Origin: Candidatus Kaiserbacteria bacterium
GTDB taxonomy: Bacteria > Patescibacteriota > Minisyncoccia > Phycocordibacterales > UBA918
DNA: 64,000 nt
Assembly (NCBI GenBank): GCA_020428795.1
Contig: JAGQME010000003.1
Coordinates: forward strand, 30,438 to 94,437
Direction of reading: 5' to 3'
The position numbers and the translations under genes were made by a program. The notes beneath the pieces are model-generated. The model was given only the letters and a program-made list of their open reading frames with translations, was not told where the DNA came from and ran no database searches. Below, piece by piece: positions 3,552-44,062 of the stretch. Within the stretch, counting starts at the first letter, position 1, and the number at the start of each line of letters is the position of its first letter.

Positions 3552-4010
3552 TTAAGCCTTATCTTTGATATTGAGAAAGTCTCCCAGAATGTGTTTTAGA
3601 CCCTGTCTTGATATGATACCAACCGGCCGACCTTCTTTATCGATTACTGGTATCCTAGCTCTTTGTCTTGAGACGGCTGTCGCTGCTACTTCAAATAATC
3701 CATCGTGGATGCCAACAGTATCAAAATCATAAGACATAAACAGACTAACCGGAGTGTCACGGGCCTCTTTGATGGCTGCCTCAAACTGATCTTCACTGGC
3801 GAAATGTTCTAATACATCATCACCATCAACATCCATCGGCACGACTGCATCCAAAAAGTCGGCCACTGACAATTCGCCGGTGAGTTTACCTTCCTCATCA
3901 ACCACCAAGAGGGTGTTGGTTTGTGAGCGGATCATCTTGGTCAGAGCTTCGGCGAAAGTGCTTTCTTCACCAATAATGTGCGCTTCTTTGATAATATCAG
4001 CGACTTCCAT
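3552..4010 (-). CDS. CBS-pair domain protein (paralog 1), last gene of the CBS-permease-CBS operon
   Basis: Two CBS-type repeats. The likely start is MEVADIIKEA (internal Met of ORF 3552..4070). About 45% identical by eye to the paralog at 5535..5993. Confidence 0.75.
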   Translation of the reverse strand: MEVADIIKEAHIIGEESTFAEALTKMIRSQTNTLLVVDEEGKLTGELSVADFLDAVVPMDVDGDDVLEHFASEDQFEAAIKEARDTPVSLFMSYDFDTVGIHDGLFEVAATAVSRQRARIPVIDKEGRPVGIISRQGLKHILGDFLNIKDKA

Positions 4011-6066: not shown

Positions 6067-9000
6067 ATGTCAAATTCCAAATCATCAGAAAAATCAGCCG
6101 GAGTAAGTAGTGATCCTACATTTTATACTGCTTACAAAAGACTAAATGACCGACAGCAGGAAGCGGTTGATACTATTGAGGGGCCGGTGATGGTGATTGC
6201 GGGACCCGGTACCGGTAAAACCCAGATATTAACTCTCCGCATAGCCAACATCTTGGCTCAAACCGACACCAAACCAGACCAGATTTTGGCTTTGACCTTT
6301 ACAGATTCGGGAGCCAAGGCGATGAGACAGCGGTTGTTTGAATACATTGGGTCGGCTTCCTACAAAGTGGCTATTTTTACCTTTCATAGTTTTGCTCAAC
6401 GCTTAATCGCTGATTATCCGGATGCTTATCCTAAAATAGTTGGCGGTCGACCGGCCAGAGATATTGAAAAAATTTCTATGATTAGAAATATCCTCGATCA
6501 AGGGGAGGTGGAGAATTTACGTCCGGCCGGTAATCCGCAGTATTATATAAAATCAATTCAGGGCATGATCAGTGATCTGAAAAGGGAGTATGTGACACCA
6601 GATAAGCTGGCTAAGATTATAAACGTTGAAGAAAAAGAACTTGAAAATACTGAGAAGATCCACCAAAAAGGGGCTCATAAGGGAAAGGTTAAAAAAGCTT
6701 ATAGCGACAAAGAAAAATCCATCGCCAAAAATAAATCATTACTGCATGTATATCGTCAGTATGAATCTTACCTAAAGGCCGAAAATCTTTTTGACTTTGA
6801 CGATATGATCCTAGAAACAGTGCGAGCGCTGGAAGGCGATGAATCGATGTTATTAGATTTGCAGGAACAGTATCAGTATATTCTGGCCGACGAGCACCAA
6901 GATGTTAATGGTTCACAAAATAGAATTCTGGAATTATTAGCTTCTTATCATGATTCACCAAATATTTTTGTAGTGGGGGATGAAAAACAAGCTATTTTTA
7001 GATTTCAAGGAGCTTCTCTAGAGAATTTTTTATACTTTGGTGAATTATTTAAAGATACAAAAACAATTGCCTTATCAGAAAATTATCGTTCTGGTCAGGA
7101 GATACTCGATGTTGCTCATGATTTGATACAGGTGGAGGAAGGTCCGCTTAAGGATTTAAGGGTCCCACTTCAGGCCTTTACGAAACAACCAGCAGAGGTT
7201 TCTCGACGTGACTTTTCTCACGAAGCAATTGAGGATGACTGGGTGGTTAAGCGGGTTTTGGAATCGATTGAAGAGGGTGTGCCTAAACATGAAATTGCGG
7301 TGATTGTTCGTTCAAACAAAGAAGTTGAACATTTTTCTAATCTGATCAGGCGCTCTTTGGTACCGGTACAGGCTTCGGCTGATAGTGATATTCTTGATCA
7401 TCCTATTACACACACGATTGAACAGTTGATGCAGGCGGTTATTTCTAATGACAATCTGGCTTTGTTTACAGTTTTGCACGGTGCCTATTGGGGAATAACT
7501 AGGAGTGATCTGGTCAGAATCACTTCAGCTCAGAGTTATGATAGAAACTTACTCCAGATTTTAGAAGATGATGATTTTTTGCGTATTTTAAAACTGGATA
7601 ATTTAGCAGCGGTTAATAATGTTTTGTCGGTCCTTAAGGAAGCCAGAAAGCGTTCAGTCACCGAAGTTCCTTATAATGTTTTAGCCTATTTGGTCGAGGC
7701 TAGTGGTCTCAAGGATTTTATTATGACGACTGATCCCTTAGAGACATCGAGGGTGGTTAGACGACTTTATGACGAGGTTAAAGAATTGGTAGAAAAAGAT
7801 AATTCAATTAGTTTGTCAGATGTAGCCGGGATTTTGAACCAGAGACGACAGTTTAATTTACCGCTAGAGGCCCCTTATATTACGGTGGGAAACGAGGCGG
7901 TTCAGGTCATGACGGCTCATAAGTCTAAGGGGTTGGAGTTTTCAGTAGTCATAGCGCCACATCTTAATGATGGTTCTTGGGGTGGTAAAGTTAATCGTAA
8001 AAACTTCGACATTGTTTTGCCGACCCATCTTAAGGAACCGCAGGCTGATAAAATGGACGATGAAAAAAGGTTGTTGTACGTGGTGATGACAAGAGCCAAA
8101 ACCAAGTTATATCTTAGTTTAAGTCAGACAAACTCTGAAGGCAAAATAATGTCACCGACTCGGTTGTTTGATGATATTAATCCAGATTTAGTGACGGTAG
8201 TTGATATATCTTTATACGAAGCAGAATTCCAACCACTGGATAATATAAATAAAGAAAAATCAGCTATCTCGGTTGATGAAAAATTATTGAAAGCTATTAT
8301 CTCTGAGAAAGGTTTTTCGGCTACATCATTTAATAACTACTTAAGCAGTCCTTGGACTTACTATTATCGTAATCTATTACGTATACCAGAAGTACAATCT
8401 TTGGTTTTGCAATTTGGAACGGCGGTTCATAATGTTTTACAGAAAGTAACGGTTGATTATTCTGTTAATAAAAAACTACCGAGCGACTCAATAATTGAGG
8501 GGTATCTAGAAAAAGAGTTGTCTCGGTTGCCGATTGGAGCCGAAGATTTTACTCGGTTGCATAAGAAAGGATTTGAAGCCCTCTTAACCTATCTACCAAA
8601 GGTGGTTAGCGGTTGGTATGAAAATATTAAGGTTGAAATGCCAATCAGGGTAATGCTGGAGACGGGACTTTTGAGTGTGCCTATGGTACCGCTGACTGGT
8701 AAGCTCGATCGTCTGGATATGGATGAAGCCGGTAGGGTTGTTAGGGTAGTTGATTATAAAACGGGTAAACCCAAGACTCGTAATGTTATTGAAGGGAAGA
8801 CAAAATCATCGGACGGTAATTATAAGAGACAATTGGTATTTTACGCTTTACTATTGGATTTATATGACGATGATCGTTATAAGTGTCGGGAGGGAGTATT
8901 ATCTTTTGTAGAGGCTGATAGCAAAGGGGAAATACATGAAGAGCCCTTTACTATCACTGATGAGGAGATAGAAGAATTAAAGCAACAGATAATAAGGGCT

Positions 9001-40285: not shown

Positions 40286-41185
40286 TTACTTCCAAAATTC
40301 AATAATAAAAACCCCAAAAGTAATTAAAATAATTGCCATCCATTGGGTTGGTGAAATTTGGTTCCGTTCATGGATGGGGAATAGAAAGAAAATAATAAGT
40401 AAGAAAATACTCTGTACACCACCTAAAGCAGTTACATAGGCTCCTAAGGGAGCCAGTGAGATAGCTAGCATTACAAAAAGGAAAGAAATTTGAGATATAG
40501 TCTCGTTTAATAAACTAAAACCGAGAAAGTTGCCTCCCTGATTCTTTACTCGATATAAGAATCCATCACGATACGGTTTAATTAGACTGACCAAAAATAA
40601 TCCAATTACACCAATCCCTACGTATTGATAAAAGAATACCGTCAGTACGCTCGTTTCTGCAGAAGCCAATCTAACCAAGAAAAGTGATACTGACCACATT
40701 AGTGAAACCGGCAACATGATTAATAGAAGTTTGGTGGGAACTTTCCATCTAAAAGTATCAGAATCAAGTATGTAAGCACCCAAAACCAACACCCCAATTC
40801 CTAACAAAGCAGTAAAGGTAACATGAGCACCAAATAATAATTCAATAACCAATAGCCAGATACTGCTCAAACCAAATAGGGGTACAACCTGATGGGCTGG
40901 GTAGATAAGGAATAAATAGAAGTAGGCAGTCCATAAAATAACCATAGGTACGGCAGAAGCTAAGGCCAGATAGAGTGAGTGGTTGCTTATACTTAAGTCA
41001 CTAATATATAAACCAAGGCTAGCAATAGTCACAACACTAAGTAGTGTAGAAATAATGATCACACCCCCGATTCTTTTATGGGGACTTTCTTGGTCGGTAA
41101 CTTTGTTGTTTGACGTTAAATACTCGTCAATATAATTGACGAGGGCCATGGTGAAACAGTGAATAATTGTATAGACAAACCACAT
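40286..41185 (-). CDS. DMT-superfamily (EamA-like) membrane transporter, putative
   Basis: About 10 TM helices in two 5-TM halves. Confidence 0.45.
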   Translation of the reverse strand: MWFVYTIIHCFTMALVNYIDEYLTSNNKVTDQESPHKRIGGVIIISTLLSVVTIASLGLYISDLSISNHSLYLALASAVPMVILWTAYFYLFLIYPAHQVVPLFGLSSIWLLVIELLFGAHVTFTALLGIGVLVLGAYILDSDTFRWKVPTKLLLIMLPVSLMWSVSLFLVRLASAETSVLTVFFYQYVGIGVIGLFLVSLIKPYRDGFLYRVKNQGGNFLGFSLLNETISQISFLFVMLAISLAPLGAYVTALGGVQSIFLLIIFFLFPIHERNQISPTQWMAIILITFGVFIIEFWK

Positions 41186-41255
41186 GTAATTATTAAATTA
41201 TAACAGAAGTAAGCATCTATATAATAGAAACTTCGATTATTCTAATTTATCATAC

Positions 41256-41299
41256 AAAATGGTACGTACATAAGTACGTACTTATGTACGTACCATTTT
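41256..41299. repeat. 44-bp perfect palindrome rich in GTAC cores
   Basis: aaaatggtacgtacataagtac|gtacttatgtacgtaccatttt, an exact dyad symmetry with no spacer. Confidence 0.85.
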
Positions 41300-41362
41300 A
41301 CTAGTCCGTCAAGAATGATCCGTGGCGTTAGAGTGAGGAGGAGGTGGGATGGCTAGGCGGAT

Positions 41363-41488
41363 TTTTACATACTATGCAGATATTATGCTAATAATTTTTT
41401 TAAGACGGTCCGGTTTAAAATTTGGGAACTTTTTTATTCTCTTAAGAGACTTTTTGAATCTACTGCTATAGTGAACTGTGTATTTCAT
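41363..41488 (-). pseudogene. Truncated yafQ/relE-family toxin remnant (41 codons, then a stop and unrelated sequence)
   Basis: Translation MKYTVHYSSRFKKSLKRIKKFPNFKPDRLKKIISIISA* aligns with the N-terminal half of YafQ-type toxins. The ATG lies 2 nt after the antitoxin stop. All three frames carry stops beyond this point. Confidence 0.5.
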
Positions 41489-41490
41489 AA

Positions 41491-41763
41491 CTACAGCTCT
41501 AGGTCGGCAAAGAGTTCGTCTAGGTTATGGTAACCTTTGGAACGCTTTGCTTTCTTAACGTCAGAAACTAGGGCCTTTTCTTGTGCAGGAGTGAAGCCAT
41601 TTTCAGTTTTTAAATCCAAAGGTACACCTTTTCGGTTTATTACATTTATTAAAAATAATTTAATGGCACTAGACATATCTAAACCAACTCCATCGAGTAT
41701 TTTTTTGGCATTCTTCTTGGTCTTAGAGTCAATTCGTATTTGTATAGTATCTTGATAATTCAT
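41491..41763 (-). CDS. DinJ/RelB-family type II antitoxin (ribbon-helix-helix)
   Basis: IQIRIDSKTKKNAKKILDGVGLDMSSAIKLFLINV matches the DinJ N-terminal RHH. Size is 90 aa. Confidence 0.75.
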   Translation of the reverse strand: MNYQDTIQIRIDSKTKKNAKKILDGVGLDMSSAIKLFLINVINRKGVPLDLKTENGFTPAQEKALVSDVKKAKRSKGYHNLDELFADLEL

Positions 41764-41812
41764 AATAGGAGTTTATAATTTTGTAATGACAATGTAAATA
41801 CATTTTATGTTT

Positions 41813-41827
41813 CGGCGGTAGGATTCG
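41813..41827 (-). repeat. 15-bp exact direct copy of the tRNA-Asn 3' region (T-loop/acceptor); att-like scar
   Basis: cggcggtaggattcg recurs at 42840..42854 inside the tRNA, in the same orientation, about 1.03 kb away. Confidence 0.5.
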
Positions 41828-41919
41828 TTCTTATGGTTTGTAATTTTCTACGTTCTTGACGACCACGATACAAGTCTCACTTGTCTAAGCATTATTGCTA
41901 GAAACAAATACAAGAAAGT

Positions 41920-42270
41920 CTAATTTTCTTTATACCAATACACTGGAGTCCCTGATTCTCCATATTGCTCAATCACGTCATCAAGTGGGTCCAGCCATTC
42001 TTCACTGCAACCACGTTCTGTAACCCAAGCGTTCCAGGTATCCATCTGAATATTTACATCAGATTGCGGATATTTGGTTAGATACTCATAAGACCATGCA
42101 TTCCAAAAGTCATTGAAGTTACCTTCAGTCGGGCATTGTAAAAATTTAGTGTCACTATCATCTAGATTAGATGTGGCAAGATATAAATCAATAAATAAGA
42201 TGTCATAAACAACAAGACCTGCCATAAACGCACCTATGACTATCATTATGAATTTTAGTTTTCTACCCAT
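41920..42270 (-). CDS. Hypothetical exported/membrane-anchored protein (Trp-rich)
   Basis: N-terminal TM helix. Lies inside the att-like bounded segment. Confidence 0.35.
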   Translation of the reverse strand: MGRKLKFIMIVIGAFMAGLVVYDILFIDLYLATSNLDDSDTKFLQCPTEGNFNDFWNAWSYEYLTKYPQSDVNIQMDTWNAWVTERGCSEEWLDPLDDVIEQYGESGTPVYWYKEN

Positions 42271-42662
42271 GCTTTACAACCCTCATTAAATGATTTTGAT
42301 GTATTTGGACACTCACTTTTCCACATAATATTATTTTTCATAGCCCAATTGTAGCCCGCTTCATGACCACTGCAATCTTTTGTGCAATTATACCCATGGA
42401 AATATTGGGGCCTGTTTTCTATTCTTTCTTTCAAATCTTTGTCAGTCACTCGTTCGTCTGTGGGAATAGAAATATAATTTAGAAAGCCAAAAAAGAATCC
42501 AAAGGCAATAATCGGCCCAAGCCCAAATAATATAAGCTTAGGGAATGTGTCGATTTCCAATCGTTTCTCTTTTTCCTGACGCTCTCTAGATGCTTGGAGC
42601 ATACGTTTACGGAATTCCTCTTTAGTTAGTTTTTCGGTCATAAAATACAAAAAGCCCACCAC
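42255..42662 (-). CDS. Hypothetical protein with a central TM helix and a Cys-rich C-terminal region
   Basis: 135-aa ORF overlapping the downstream ORF by 16 nt. Lies inside the att-like bounded segment. Confidence 0.35.
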   Translation of the reverse strand: MVGFLYFMTEKLTKEEFRKRMLQASRERQEKEKRLEIDTFPKLILFGLGPIIAFGFFFGFLNYISIPTDERVTDKDLKERIENRPQYFHGYNCTKDCSGHEAGYNWAMKNNIMWKSECPNTSKSFNEGCKAWVEN

Positions 42663-42833
42663 ATATGGCGTGGTCTCTCGGCCACCGATACCAGTTTCCC
42701 AGGACGGCCCGTCAGAGCTAACCTCACAAGATAAATTATATAATATAAAAATTCATTTTTATATTAATTTCGAGTGCAGTTCAAGAAAACTCTGCTTACG
42801 ACAATTCGTTAACAAAATAAAAAAATCATTTGT

Positions 42834-42908
42834 TGGCTCCGGCGGTAGGATTCGAACCTACGACCAATGCGTTAACAGCGCACTGCTCTACCGCTGAGCT
42901 ACGCCGGA
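42834..42908 (-). tRNA. tRNA-Asn (anticodon GTT), 75 nt with encoded CCA
   Basis: Manual fold gives acceptor TCCGGCG/CGCCGGA, D-arm GCTC-AGCGGTA-GAGC, anticodon arm GTGCG-CTGTTAA-CGCAT, T-arm GTAGG-TTCGAAT-CCTAC, discriminator G, CCA. Confidence 0.9.
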
Positions 42909-43195
42909 GCCAATAAATGATTTTAATTATTTGAGCGCCCCTTCTTACAGAAGTTGTAAACCTTTATGATATCTTTCATGCTTCAATATATCTATAAAGG
43001 TCTTGCGAAGGTGTTTATAAACCTTCTCACTCTACCCCTCGGCTACGCCGTAAGAAGTAGCCGCATAATCTGTCAAAGCGTGACAGAGTAGTGCTATTGT
43101 ACAGAAAAAAGAGACTATTTCAACTAGGTTGGTGGTGATGTTGGGTGCTTCTATGTAACATATTTTAAAATAACGTTTTTTGGTACAATGTCCAA

Positions 43196-44062
43196 ATGCC
43201 TGAGTTACCAGAAGTCGAAACAGTTAGGGTTCAACTAATTGATAAAGTAGTAGGAAAGAAGATTAAAGGAGTCGAGGTTTTTCACGACAAAACAGTCGGT
43301 TTTGATGAAGATTTTGAACAGAAACTATTAGGTAAGATAATATCTGATATTGGCCGGGTCGGTAAATTACTTTTCTTTAGTTTCAAAAATGAATCTGATT
43401 TATTTATGTTGGCCCACCTCAAAATGACCGGTCAGTTTTTCTATGTGTCTAAGAATGAAGTGGTTACTGGTGGTGGACACTCAATGACTGAAAATGATAT
43501 GAGGGAATTTCCGGGTCGTCATACCAGATGTGCTTTTTATTTCGCTGACGGGACGAGTCTGTATTTTAATGATATGAGGATTTTTGGTTATCTTAGATTG
43601 GTAGACAAACCGGGTTTGGAAACAGCTAAAAGTGGCTACGGTCCGGAACCAATTGATCCAGACTTTGATATTGATTGGTTTTTGCAGAAATTAAAAAGAC
43701 GAAATACTAATATAAAAGCGGTTTTGTTGGACCAAACCTTTGTATCTGGGCTTGGTAATATTTATGTTGATGAAGCTCTTTGGCGAGCTAAAGTGCTTCC
43801 AGAAAGACAGGCTAGTAGTTTGAGTAAGCGGGAAGCGACGGCTTTAGCCGTCGCTTCCAAAGAAGTAATGCTGGAGTCTATTCTTAAAGGAGGGACCACT
43901 TTCCAGAGTTTTGCTGATACTGAGGGAAGAGAAGGTAATTTTCGAGATTATTTGAAAGTTTTTGGTAGGCAGGGTCAGATTTGTGAGAGGTGTGGGGGTG
44001 AGATAAAGAAGATTCGAGTAGCGGGGCGGGGTACTCATTTTTGCTCTAAGTGCCAACGTTAA
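43196..44062 (+). CDS. mutM: Formamidopyrimidine-DNA glycosylase
   Basis: N-terminal MPELPEVE (catalytic Pro2/Glu3), an H2TH region, and a C-terminal zinc finger CERCGG..C.KCQ. Confidence 0.9.
   Translation: MPELPEVETVRVQLIDKVVGKKIKGVEVFHDKTVGFDEDFEQKLLGKIISDIGRVGKLLFFSFKNESDLFMLAHLKMTGQFFYVSKNEVVTGGGHSMTENDMREFPGRHTRCAFYFADGTSLYFNDMRIFGYLRLVDKPGLETAKSGYGPEPIDPDFDIDWFLQKLKRRNTNIKAVLLDQTFVSGLGNIYVDEALWRAKVLPERQASSLSKREATALAVASKEVMLESILKGGTTFQSFADTEGREGNFRDYLKVFGRQGQICERCGGEIKKIRVAGRGTHFCSKCQR

Follow-up and report, generated by a model that had tools for sequence, protein, structure and literature searches.

A short segment of a tRNA-Asn gene recurs about 1 kb from it, which raises the question of whether the DNA between the two copies is the remains of an integrated element, as a first-pass annotation of this locus proposed, and if so by what route it arrived. 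In the window (the whole 64-kb stretch of DNA analysed) there are exactly two copies of CGGCGGTAGGATTCG, in direct orientation and 1027 nt apart (Table 1), and no further sites even when two mismatches are allowed. Position arithmetic agrees with the annotation in placing the repeat at tRNA-Asn nt 55–69 (42908 − 42854 + 1 = 55; 42908 − 42840 + 1 = 69), a span that covers the final 5 nt of the T-loop, the 3′ strand of the T-stem and the first five of the seven nucleotides of the acceptor 3′ strand. The exact recurrence is also beyond chance, as had been estimated, with two matches reproduced in 0/100 dinucleotide-preserving shuffles (mean 0.02 at ≤2 mismatches), and because the tRNA gene is on the minus strand the distal copy is on its 3′ side, the correct one for integration at a tRNA 3′ end.

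The repeat and the interval it bounds

The distal copy stops at nt 69 of the 75 in the tRNA, where the next bases are AAACAT as against GAGCCA in the gene, and on either side its flanks match the tRNA at 5/11 positions, which is chance level. Apart from the real gene there is no match to the tRNA model at E≤1 between 41000 and 43300, so the wider tRNA-derived sequence that the annotation had named as the alternative to an att scar is absent here. Nor is there a third copy of the tRNA-derived core further left (at ≥16/20 matches), and the suggestion that the distal copy is the inner boundary of a larger element was not borne out.

Table 1. Features of the tRNA-Asn locus, with coordinates in the window
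Feature	Coordinates	Strand	Basis
Perfect 44-nt palindrome	41256–41299		Unique in window; terminator score on both strands
Outer flank, not shown to be element	41256–41798	−	
yafQ remnant, 38 aa, N-terminal	41372–41488	−	Pfam YafQ 16.8 bits (cut-off 30)
relB/dinJ	41491–41763	−	Pfam RelB 47.9 bits; TIGR02384 68.4 bits
relB promoter-like site	41798–41770	−	
Distal copy of CGGCGGTAGGATTCG, read as an att-core-like relic	41813–41827	−	Exact match; flanks unrelated to tRNA
92 nt between p116 stop codon and distal core, presumed element arm beside att relic	41828–41919	−	
p116, 116 aa, ORF intact, 16-nt overlap with p128	41920–42270	−	ORF; homologues
p128, 128 aa, ORF intact	42255–42641	−	ORF; 69% identity to element copy P0001
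5′-truncated LOOT RNA (Rfam RF03000, model 56–121 only) and 3′ hairpin	42657–42736	−	DNA alignment to complete LOOT copies
tRNA trailer with AT-rich terminator-like hairpin	42741–42833	−	Inverted repeat; L025 similarity
tRNA-Asn(GTT), 75 nt, CCA encoded	42834–42908	−	ARAGORN; Rfam tRNA 73.6 bits
Proximal copy of CGGCGGTAGGATTCG, inside tRNA-Asn	42840–42854		Exact match
tRNA-Asn promoter-like site and ~190-nt leader	42909–43123	−	Promoter scan
18/21 copy of tRNA nt 3–23, at leader start	43030–43050	−	Repeat family D10
tRNA-Asn promoter-like site	43123–43096	−	Promoter scan

The interval has a GC content of 0.35–0.38, compared with about 0.40 elsewhere, and contains two overlapping minus-strand ORFs (coding for p128 and p116) and a 5′-truncated LOOT RNA. 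The LOOT fragment itself is at ~42670–42736, and a terminator-like hairpin (42657–42674) precedes the start codon of p128 by about 16 nt. It scores 12.6 bits (E=1.9) over model positions 56–121, against a gathering score of 46.4 for RF03000, and ordinary Rfam scans of the window report no LOOT match. The cut at model position ~56 coincides with the point where homology to the related elements described below ends, and blastn homology to one of these (L080) stops at 42732. A reading of this GC-rich patch as a novel RNA was rejected, the patch being the truncated LOOT.

The two ORFs are small and lack Pfam matches, and no recombinase or primase was found anywhere in the 64 kb by tblastn with three large serine recombinases (LSRs) and two primases, all of which agrees with the annotation's account of the interval as two small overlapping ORFs and no integrase. 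p128 has a single transmembrane helix and a C-terminal four-Cys domain (GYxCTxDCSGHEAGYNWA...C...SFxEGC), and p116 has an N-terminal transmembrane helix and a small helical Trp-rich domain with two conserved Cys; their dN/dS values are 0.17 and 0.15–0.22, and their AF2 models have pLDDT values of 78 and 73, respectively. Neither protein matches an entry in Pfam, PHROG, NCBIfam or PDB; GenBank phages gave no tblastn match to p128, and IMG/VR gave none to a p116 alignment. The p116 homologues are 42–67% identical (alignment values), and five of them adjoin LOOT inside elements. For the 92-nt segment between p116 and the distal copy, neither the retrieved loci nor the ~200-nt tRNA-linked units described below gave a significant match, which left the possibility that it is a remnant of such a unit without support.

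Beyond the distal copy, the outer flank has what appears to be a RelB/DinJ–YafQ type II toxin-antitoxin pair in which the antitoxin domain is present and an intact YafQ-type toxin is absent. Neither relB nor the yafQ remnant has a counterpart in any of the element copies, and the palindrome looks like an ordinary terminator for both strands; the idea that these three features belong to a larger element thus finds no support.

On the other side of the interval, the trailer that separates the tRNA from the LOOT fragment is 79% identical to the spacer after the tRNA-Asn of a related locus, L025, which together with L024 has a leader alignable with that of the window. The first 16 nt of the trailer pair with the tRNA leader and lengthen the acceptor stem, and this helix is present in both loci (15/18 pairs in the window, 14/18 in L025) with different sequences, being upheld by three compensatory double changes between them. 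With this pairing and the similarity to L025 the trailer looks native; the ~93 nt immediately following the tRNA are probably host sequence rather than element-derived, and the tRNA itself is probably not the proximal boundary. A recombinase C-terminus hidden in the trailer, as in locus L015, was not found. A weak promoter-like site is present at 42767–42740. We also considered the leader as a group I intron relic and rejected this, as it does not resemble the introns present in L018 and L024.

LOOT-bearing elements and tRNA-derived sites in other Patescibacteria

Complete LOOT followed by p128-like genes, p116-like genes or both is present at five independent loci (L003/L080, L005/L078, L006, L015 and L081, the last being the sole locus added by a metagenome scan with the p116 alignment). 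Complete LOOT scores 47–68 bits in these (47.2 the lowest), above the Rfam gathering score, and in L015 it is followed by a 311-aa ORF. All three of the loci whose contigs reach far enough (L078, L080 and L015) encode an LSR, and L078 and L080 also encode a primase-helicase (Prim-Pol/AAA_25); the recombinases are composed of Resolvase, Recombinase and Zn-ribbon domains. As reconstructed from these loci, one arm of the element family would carry the LSR and the primase-helicase, and the other would carry genes for 110-aa and 182-aa proteins, LOOT, the p128-like and p116-like genes, and variable defence cargo. The window lacks the LSR and the primase-helicase, and tblastn with the 110-aa and 182-aa proteins gave no match in it, while the order and orientation of truncated LOOT, p128 and p116 are kept. 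This block is 75–82% identical to the element module in DNA and 63–69% in protein, with 42182–42732 matching L080/L003 (75%) and 41929–42154 matching L006/L078 (80–82%), and the succession of tRNA, LOOT, p128 and p116 is the same in the window and L080, as is their orientation. In each of these complete copies LOOT immediately precedes a gene for a small membrane protein and closes with a terminator-like hairpin, features that would suit a 5′ leader better than a free-standing sRNA; the main text of Weinberg et al. (2017) does not discuss LOOT.

The L080 element spans 14,092 bp between two GGGTCACCAAT cores. L080/L084 carry it; L082, L083 and L085 do not, and in these three sister samples the attB is uninterrupted and the flanks are 98.6–100% identical. 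Judged from these empty sites the element is demonstrably mobile. Its attB forms the end of a partial, 23-nt copy of tRNA-Glu located 212 nt past the real tRNA-Glu gene, and the same attB is also occupied by a second, different LSR element (L078). In the one case where the att core of the family is resolved, it is 11 nt long and located at the extreme 3′ end of the tRNA-like sequence, and the attP is dyad-like. The recombinase ORF in the related elements reads through the tRNA-like att site, and the recombinase gene directly adjoins that site in L015, L078 and L080, whereas the window has a plain trailer and terminator. In L015 (contig JACKGC010000002) the 3′ end of the LSR gene overlaps the orthologous tRNA-Asn beside fpg, with LOOT 3.6 kb further on. 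Comparison of these sites shows that the element family inserts at sequences derived from tRNA 3′ ends.

Partial tRNA copies of this kind are not confined to element boundaries. Direct partial copies of the tRNA-Asn 3′ end are present 132–700 nt downstream of the gene in L025, L020, L043 (two copies) and L014, and the positions at which a partial copy matches its own tRNA differ from lineage to lineage. One example is L025, in which the tRNA and the homologous trailer are followed by a 26-nt copy that keeps the tRNA end and there is no LOOT block, a comparison limited by the outer flanks (TATTTACATT), whose similarity to the window is not significant (1549/20000 shuffles) and does not support a shared ancestry. 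A second example is provided by the tRNA-Glu strains L082, L083 and L085, which likewise have the copy and no element. The spacer units of the relatives are ~200 nt long, have a conserved architecture that includes the end of the local tRNA as an inverted copy split by a hairpin, and persist in element-free strains.

No empty or intact-element version of the window's own tRNA-Asn locus was found; the sole other copy (L001) is identical and occupied. Relatives (Fpg ≤66% identical) keep the adjacency of tRNA-Asn and fpg and do not keep left-flank synteny, the exact tRNA-Asn nt 1–69 has no match in JGI metagenome contigs, and an exact look-up of the window Fpg protein returned no record.

Origin of the interval

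We consider it probable that the interval is the immobilised remnant of a Patescibacteria LSR integrative element that entered through a pseudo-tRNA site. The annotation's reading of a degraded island with att boundaries is supported for the content, which is element-derived, and less so for the boundaries, for which there is no empty site, a distal copy that is 6 nt short and a trailer that looks native. The absence of a recombinase and the breaking off of homology inside LOOT point to a deletion remnant, and the lack of an empty site, the missing nt 70–75 and the native-looking trailer together make a pre-existing pseudo-tRNA site the likelier route. Because it ends 6 nt short, the distal copy is not what the classical model calls for, namely the tRNA's own former 3′ end in displaced form. 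Most probably the element recombined not with the tRNA itself but with a partial copy of the tRNA-Asn 3′ end already located ~100 nt past it, comparable to the copy in L025 today and to the tRNA-Glu strains with and without an element. The distal 15-mer would then be a relic of the att core at the cargo-side end of the element. Later deletions would have removed the junction next to the tRNA, the recombinase and primase genes, the two small genes, half of LOOT (its 5′ part) and any cargo, and the residue would be the trailer, truncated LOOT, p128, p116, the 92 nt and the core. p128 and p116 are still intact, probably having been retained as membrane proteins of the host. Without a recombinase the remnant can no longer move, and excision is not expected.

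There are several observations that sit awkwardly with this account. It needs at least two independent deletions, and the one demonstrated core of the family is 11 nt at the 3′ end of the tRNA copy, not nt 55–69. Displaced tRNA ends normally keep nt 70–75, as the 26-nt copy in L025 does. The exact 15 nt beside fully diverged flanks are unexplained unless the core is recent or selected, and the inner flank of 92 nt has no match.

A direct repeat on the 3′ side is most simply read as the product of an element that recombined in the T-loop/acceptor region of tRNA-Asn itself, with the present 3′ end and trailer supplied by the element and the distal 15-mer being the eroded original end. The T-loop, in which the repeat starts, is reportedly an integration sublocation of tRNA-targeting integrases, the LSR element in L015 adjoins the real tRNA-Asn at the orthologous locus, and the CCA encoded by the window tRNA, which most relatives lack, would be consistent with a replaced end. 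However, the displaced copy should keep GAGC(CA) and has AAACAT, and simple decay is an improbable source of this, as the probability that all six changes would spare the central 15 of 26 positions is by our own count 462/230230 (~0.002). Moreover, the trailer is homologous to that of L025 and its compensated pairing is with the host-side leader, as expected of native sequence, and the recombinase gene that adjoins the tRNA-like site in L015, L078 and L080 is replaced here by the plain trailer and terminator. Direct use of the tRNA is thus unlikely.

Less likely again is that the 15-mer is an older feature intrinsic to the locus, such as a maintained pseudo-tRNA site, an RNA or a protein-binding element, with the LOOT fragment having arrived between it and the tRNA by illegitimate or homologous recombination. 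The partial copies without an element in L025, L082, L083 and L085 are consistent with this, as are the lineage-varying positions at which copies match their own tRNA and the form of the fragment, which is cut short on one side and lacks a recognisable element terminus on the other. On the other hand, truncated LOOT, p128 and p116 have the same order and orientation relative to the tRNA as in integrated elements, and the family uses such pseudo-tRNA copies as attB, so that site-specific integration accounts more simply for the adjacency.

It is very improbable that the 15-mer is what is left of a second, tandem tRNA (a tRNA-Asn duplicate or a tRNA-Ala) that decayed to a pseudogene. L021 and L022 do have a tRNA-Ala 46–48 nt after tRNA-Asn, and partial copies of the tRNA 5′ end are present upstream of the tRNA in the window, L024 and L025. 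But the absence of a tRNA-model match or tRNA-like flanks around 41813 argues against it, the acceptor and T-arm sequence of tRNA-Ala differs, and element genes rather than a tRNA spacer lie between the copies. Chance recurrence, for which the shortness of the match (15 nt) may be cited, is effectively refuted by the shuffles, by the GC-rich composition of CGGCGGTAGGATTCG in a genome of 38–40% GC and by the like repeats beside tRNA-Asn in four relatives.

Significance and comparison with known systems

Read as an LSR-element remnant at a pseudo-tRNA site, the scar in the window is itself routine, an immobile fragment of an integrative element beside a tRNA gene being of a known kind. The broader setting is informative in several ways. 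The tRNA-Asn/fpg locus emerges as a hot spot for integration in a lineage that is uncultivated and genome-reduced, and the orphan LOOT family is placed on Patescibacteria LSR elements, always directly upstream of small membrane-protein genes, a biological setting that can be put to the test. The related loci provide a complete set of attB, attL and attR with recombinases for tRNA-derived pseudo-sites, which might be developed into tools for the genetics of candidate-phyla-radiation (CPR) bacteria. p128 and p116 are candidate domesticated element proteins. A more general proposal, which we put forward as a long shot, is that partial copies of tRNA 3′ ends in Paceibacteria are maintained landing pads, the window 15-mer among them, and that LOOT is a cis-acting leader and not a free sRNA. 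Such pads, 100–700 nt past tRNA genes and often within ~200-nt units with an inverted, hairpin-split copy of the tRNA end, could capture LSR elements without endangering the tRNA, and the 15-mer could have been kept exact by selection or turnover.

The locus resembles the islands and prophages at tRNA 3′ ends (P4-like and others with tyrosine integrases) in its direct repeat of tRNA 3′ sequence located on the 3′ side, and it resembles these and their decayed remnants in having foreign genes of lower GC content between the repeats and in being an integrase-less, immobile scar. It differs in that the repeat ends 6 nt before the end of the tRNA, that intact relatives of the remnant use LSRs rather than tyrosine integrases, and that the proximal boundary was probably a pseudo-tRNA copy and not the tRNA gene. 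Classical LSR elements (phiC31, Bxb1, A118, SPbeta; SCCmec/Ccr) mostly target protein-coding genes. The related elements are like them in the Resolvase, Recombinase and Zn-ribbon composition of their recombinases and, in the one resolved case, in the 11-bp core and dyad-like attP, but they target tRNA 3′ ends or partial copies of these, and their recombinase ORF crosses the att site; the window itself has no LSR. Complete LOOT RNA (RF03000, typed 'Gene; sRNA') has a homologue in the GC-rich patch that precedes p128, although the window copy is partial and well below the cut-off (12.6 versus 46.4 bits). Finally, the arrangement of a tRNA, a short spacer and a partial copy serving as a further att site (L078 and L080 compared with L082) is reminiscent of tandem island accretion and secondary attB sites, but the ~200-nt units of the relatives go beyond ordinary att scars in being kept in element-free strains.

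The 15-mer repeat and the interval it bounds

Two exact copies of CGGCGGTAGGATTCG are present, one within the tRNA-Asn gene (42840-42854) and one at 41813-41827, and there is no further match in the window with up to two mismatches allowed; none of 100 dinucleotide-preserving shuffles gave this two-match outcome. The 15-mer corresponds to tRNA nt 55-69, comprising the last five T-loop bases, the 3′ strand of the T-stem and five of the seven acceptor 3′-strand bases. The distal copy is in direct orientation and 3′ of the tRNA gene, confirming the first-pass annotation of an exact repeat beside tRNA-Asn on the side expected for integration at its 3′ end. The distal 15-mer does not belong to a wider tRNA-like sequence: an Rfam scan of 41000-43300 finds no second tRNA at E≤1, and the flanking bases match those of the tRNA at 5 of 11 positions, which is the chance level. 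A repeat search stretches the pair to 32 nt at 75%, although this AT-rich extension is unconvincing. The distal copy lacks GAGCCA; the identity block stops short of the tRNA end.

Read in the tRNA sense, the interval runs from the trailer through a GC-rich patch (LOOT′), the small membrane-protein genes p128 and p116, and a 92-nt stretch to the distal 15-mer. Both genes are intact, and a second sample (L001) has identical copies; their dN/dS relative to the element copies is 0.15-0.22, and homologues are rare (seven matches each among 5.8 billion proteins). The C-terminal domain of p128 has four conserved cysteines (GYxCTxDCSGHEAGYNWA...C...SFxEGC) and no Pfam model; it is also found in small signal-peptide proteins of unrelated non-CPR bacteria (P0003-P0007; L079 10001-10285), in ordinary chromosomal contexts. 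No tblastn match in the 64-kb window is obtained for three recombinases, two primases or the element proteins of 110 aa and 182 aa, in agreement with the earlier description of two small overlapping ORFs and no integrase.

It had also been proposed that the repeat is the inner boundary of a larger element including dinJ, the toxin remnant and the palindrome, but relB, yafQ and the other left-flank genes are in no element copy compared, and there is no further tRNA-derived repeat left of the distal copy. That reading is unsupported, though conceivable. A 40-aa hydrophobic ORF (41349-41471, plus strand) runs antisense to the yafQ remnant, immediately on the inner side of the palindromic terminator. 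Its ribosome-binding site (GGAGGAGG) is strong; no protein family matches the ORF, and it could be a chance occurrence.

Coordinates of features in the window and in compared loci (L-numbers)
Feature	Locus	Coordinates	Details
tRNA-Asn(GTT)	window	42834-42908	minus strand; sole tRNA gene of window; Rfam tRNA 73.6 bits
tRNA-Asn leader region	window	42909-43123	
tRNA-Asn leader region	L025	3876-4020	
tRNA-Asn leader region	L024	443-612	
Leader/trailer stem extension	window	42813-42844 / 42902-42933	~16 bp
Leader/trailer stem extension	L025	around 3787-3803 / 3876-3892	~16 bp
tRNA trailer	window	42741-42833	~93 nt
GC-rich patch (LOOT′)	window	~42657-42736	aligns with 3′ half of LOOT RNAs
p128 ORF	window	42255-42641	128 aa
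p116 ORF	window	41920-42270	116 aa; 16-nt overlap with p128
p116 to distal 15-mer	window	41828-41919	92 nt
Promoter-like site	window	41798-41770	left of distal copy
relB/dinJ antitoxin gene	window		left of distal copy; intact; Pfam 47.9 bits, TIGR02384 68.4 bits
yafQ remnant	window		left of distal copy; 38-aa N-terminal; 16.8 bits, below cut-off
Perfect palindrome	window		left of distal copy; 44 nt; unique in window; scores as intrinsic terminator on both strands
Full-length LOOT	L003/L080	L080 8083-8215	60.5 bits
Full-length LOOT	L005/L078	L078 9599-9725	47.2 bits
Full-length LOOT	L006	1790-1899	55.2 bits
Full-length LOOT	L081	1695-1809	56.8 bits
Full-length LOOT	L015	3785-3906	minus strand; 68.0 bits
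LSR ORF over att site	L015	5963-7576	tRNA at 7537-7609
LSR ORF over att site	L080	1358-3049	
LSR ORF over att site	L078	3334-4905	
Partial tRNA-Asn copy	L025		26 nt, 132 nt away
Partial tRNA-Asn copy	L020		17 nt, 214 nt away
Partial tRNA-Asn copies	L043		19 nt and 15 nt, two tandem ~202-nt units
Partial tRNA-Asn copy	L014		14 nt, about 700 nt away
~200-nt unit	L043	7428-7852	
~200-nt unit	L020	7541-7776	
~200-nt unit	L014	6681-6880	
~200-nt unit	L022	~6400-6560	after tRNA-Ala
~200-nt unit	L078	3135-3369	
~200-nt unit	L080	1149-1383	
~200-nt unit	L082	7868-8102	

A family of integrative elements carrying LOOT RNA

Five of the p116 matches sit in a recurring gene arrangement on Patescibacteria contigs. 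One arm encodes a large serine recombinase (LSR; Resolvase and Recombinase/Zn-ribbon domains) and a Prim-Pol/AAA_25 primase-helicase, and the divergent arm contains genes for proteins of 110 aa and 182 aa, a structured RNA, and p128-like and p116-like genes. The recombinase is present in all three loci with sufficiently long contigs (L078, L080 and L015), and the primase-helicase in two (L078 and L080). The structured RNA is Rfam LOOT RNA (RF03000), and all five full-length matches exceed the Rfam gathering score. Every complete LOOT seen is on an integrative or phage-like element, just upstream of a co-oriented small membrane-protein gene, and each complete copy closes with a short hairpin and U-run that stop a few bases short of the start codon. 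We suggest that LOOT acts in cis as a leader and is not the free sRNA implied by its Rfam type.

The window's GC-rich patch, scanned as a 5′-cut fragment, matches only LOOT model positions 56-121 (12.6 bits), and blastn homology with L080 (42182-42732, 75%) ends there. The element homology thus breaks off inside the LOOT gene, with helix P1 gone and the long hairpin left without its 5′ strand, a signature of deletion and not of a natural element end. The interval is a fragment from this mobile family, and the most fitting description for it is the remnant of an integrative element family of LSR type; a literature search of narrow breadth found no account of that family.

L078 and L080 share a host species, with 97% identity between their versions of a neighbouring 289-aa gene, and in both, tRNA-Glu(CTC) has an exact copy of its 3′ end (23 nt) lying 212 nt downstream. 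The contigs are identical through the final base of this copy and unrelated directly beyond it, and two different LSR genes start at the divergence point on the opposite strand, their 3′ ends reading through the copy. Extension of L080 by exact look-up of its cargo HsdS protein recovered L084, which holds the far junction, as well as three contigs (L082, L083 and L085), all from other samples and all lacking the whole LSR-to-GIY-YIG block. The attB joins ...CCCCGTAGGGTCACCAAT to TAGAGAGTC, attL joins ...CCCCGTAGGGTCACCAAT to AGCATATTC, and attR joins ...CATGCTAGTGGGTCACCAAT to TAGAGAGTC; two GGGTCACCAAT cores delimit the element, which measures 14,092 bp between them, and the flanks are 98.6-100% identical. 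This is clean empty-site proof for the family, and it shows that element-free strains already have the partial tRNA copy, which acts as attB. The LSR ORFs end inside or read through tRNA-derived att sequence on the opposite strand, such that their C-terminal residues are att-encoded and would be altered whenever the element excises or integrates.

tRNA-Asn loci of related genomes

The orthologous L015 locus, with tRNA-Asn beside fpg, has an LSR (Resolvase, Recombinase and Zn_ribbon_recom) that overlaps the real tRNA-Asn by its final 40 nt. Full-length LOOT is found 3.6 kb past it, followed by a gp3-like small terminase subunit (95-736; PF16677, 41.7 bits), given which some family members at least may be prophages. 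The window's source is of Paceibacteria/'Kaiserbacteria' type. In the nearest genomes of the species-representative collection Fpg is just 59-66% identical; at least ten of them keep the tRNA-Asn/fpg adjacency, whereas gene content beyond the tRNA is not conserved, so that alignment of these loci provides no clean empty site at this distance. Even so, part of the tRNA-Asn 3′ end is repeatedly found copied, in direct orientation, downstream of the gene. The most informative case is L025, which aligns with the window at 79% over leader, tRNA and some 90 nt of trailer, and the 26-nt copy comes 107 nt on with ordinary chromosomal genes past it; L025 therefore resembles the window locus without the LOOT′-p128-p116 block. 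The outer flanks (TATTTACATT) of the two loci, however, show no significant similarity.

In the window, the acceptor stem is lengthened by pairing between the tRNA leader and the initial 16 nt of the trailer (15/18 pairs). L025 keeps this helix (14/18) with a different sequence and three double compensatory changes, indicating that the trailer co-evolved with host sequence. The stem extension is absent from most other relatives and may be a pre-tRNA processing signal. At the start of the leader, part of the tRNA 5′ end is copied (43030-43050, 18/21) at normal distance from a TTGAAA-16-TACAAT promoter-like site, and the intact tRNA is thereby bracketed by a 5′-part copy upstream and a 3′-part copy downstream. 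A conserved structured stretch follows (..GAGTGAG-hairpin-CGCAAGA...CTTCTGTAAGAAGG); it is unrelated to the group I introns that split the tRNA-Asn anticodon loop in relatives (L018 6492-6726, L024 156-433 and L011 ~6321-6528; Rfam 80.8 and 77.1 bits, with L011 below threshold). Such introns in Patescibacteria are already published (PMC13011429).

Several relatives have a recurring ~200-nt unit downstream of tRNA genes, for which there is no Rfam match. It comprises a terminator hairpin, an inverted, hairpin-split copy of the tRNA's own acceptor-3′/T-arm segment, about 100 nt partly conserved between genomes (AAGCTTTTGAGTCAGAT...CTGTCCAAAAGGTATACTGGTCATGTAATGACC), and a direct tRNA 3′-end copy. 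The inverted and direct copies both vary in step with the local tRNA. Strains without an element also have the unit, the terminal copy of which serves LSR elements as attB.

Proposed history and comparison with known islands

Classical integration into the tRNA, with the trailer as element DNA and the distal copy as the displaced original 3′ end, fits the side on which the copy lies, but is argued against by the missing GAGCCA and by the pairing of trailer with leader, maintained in L025 through compensatory changes. We favour instead a route patterned on the tRNA-Glu case. A partial tRNA-Asn copy would have been present beforehand just past the terminator, the element would have integrated there with its recombinase end facing the tRNA, and later deletions would have taken everything from the proximal junction to the end of LOOT's 5′ half, plus any cargo; this order of events is the one we infer. 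LOOT, p128 and p116 have the same orientation relative to the tRNA as in L080, and the exact 15-mer between flanks unrelated on both sides looks like a core common to attP and attB.

The degraded genomic island of the first-pass annotation stands insofar as LOOT′-p128-p116 is a fragment of a mobile LSR family, and less well at its tRNA boundary. The scar itself is ordinary; what is worth pursuing is the link between LOOT RNA and LSR elements, together with the pre-existing pseudo-tRNA attachment sites. Unlike an active tRNA-associated island, the window feature is without a recombinase and its identity block does not reach the tRNA end; in how it works, it is like a decayed tRNA-associated genomic island.
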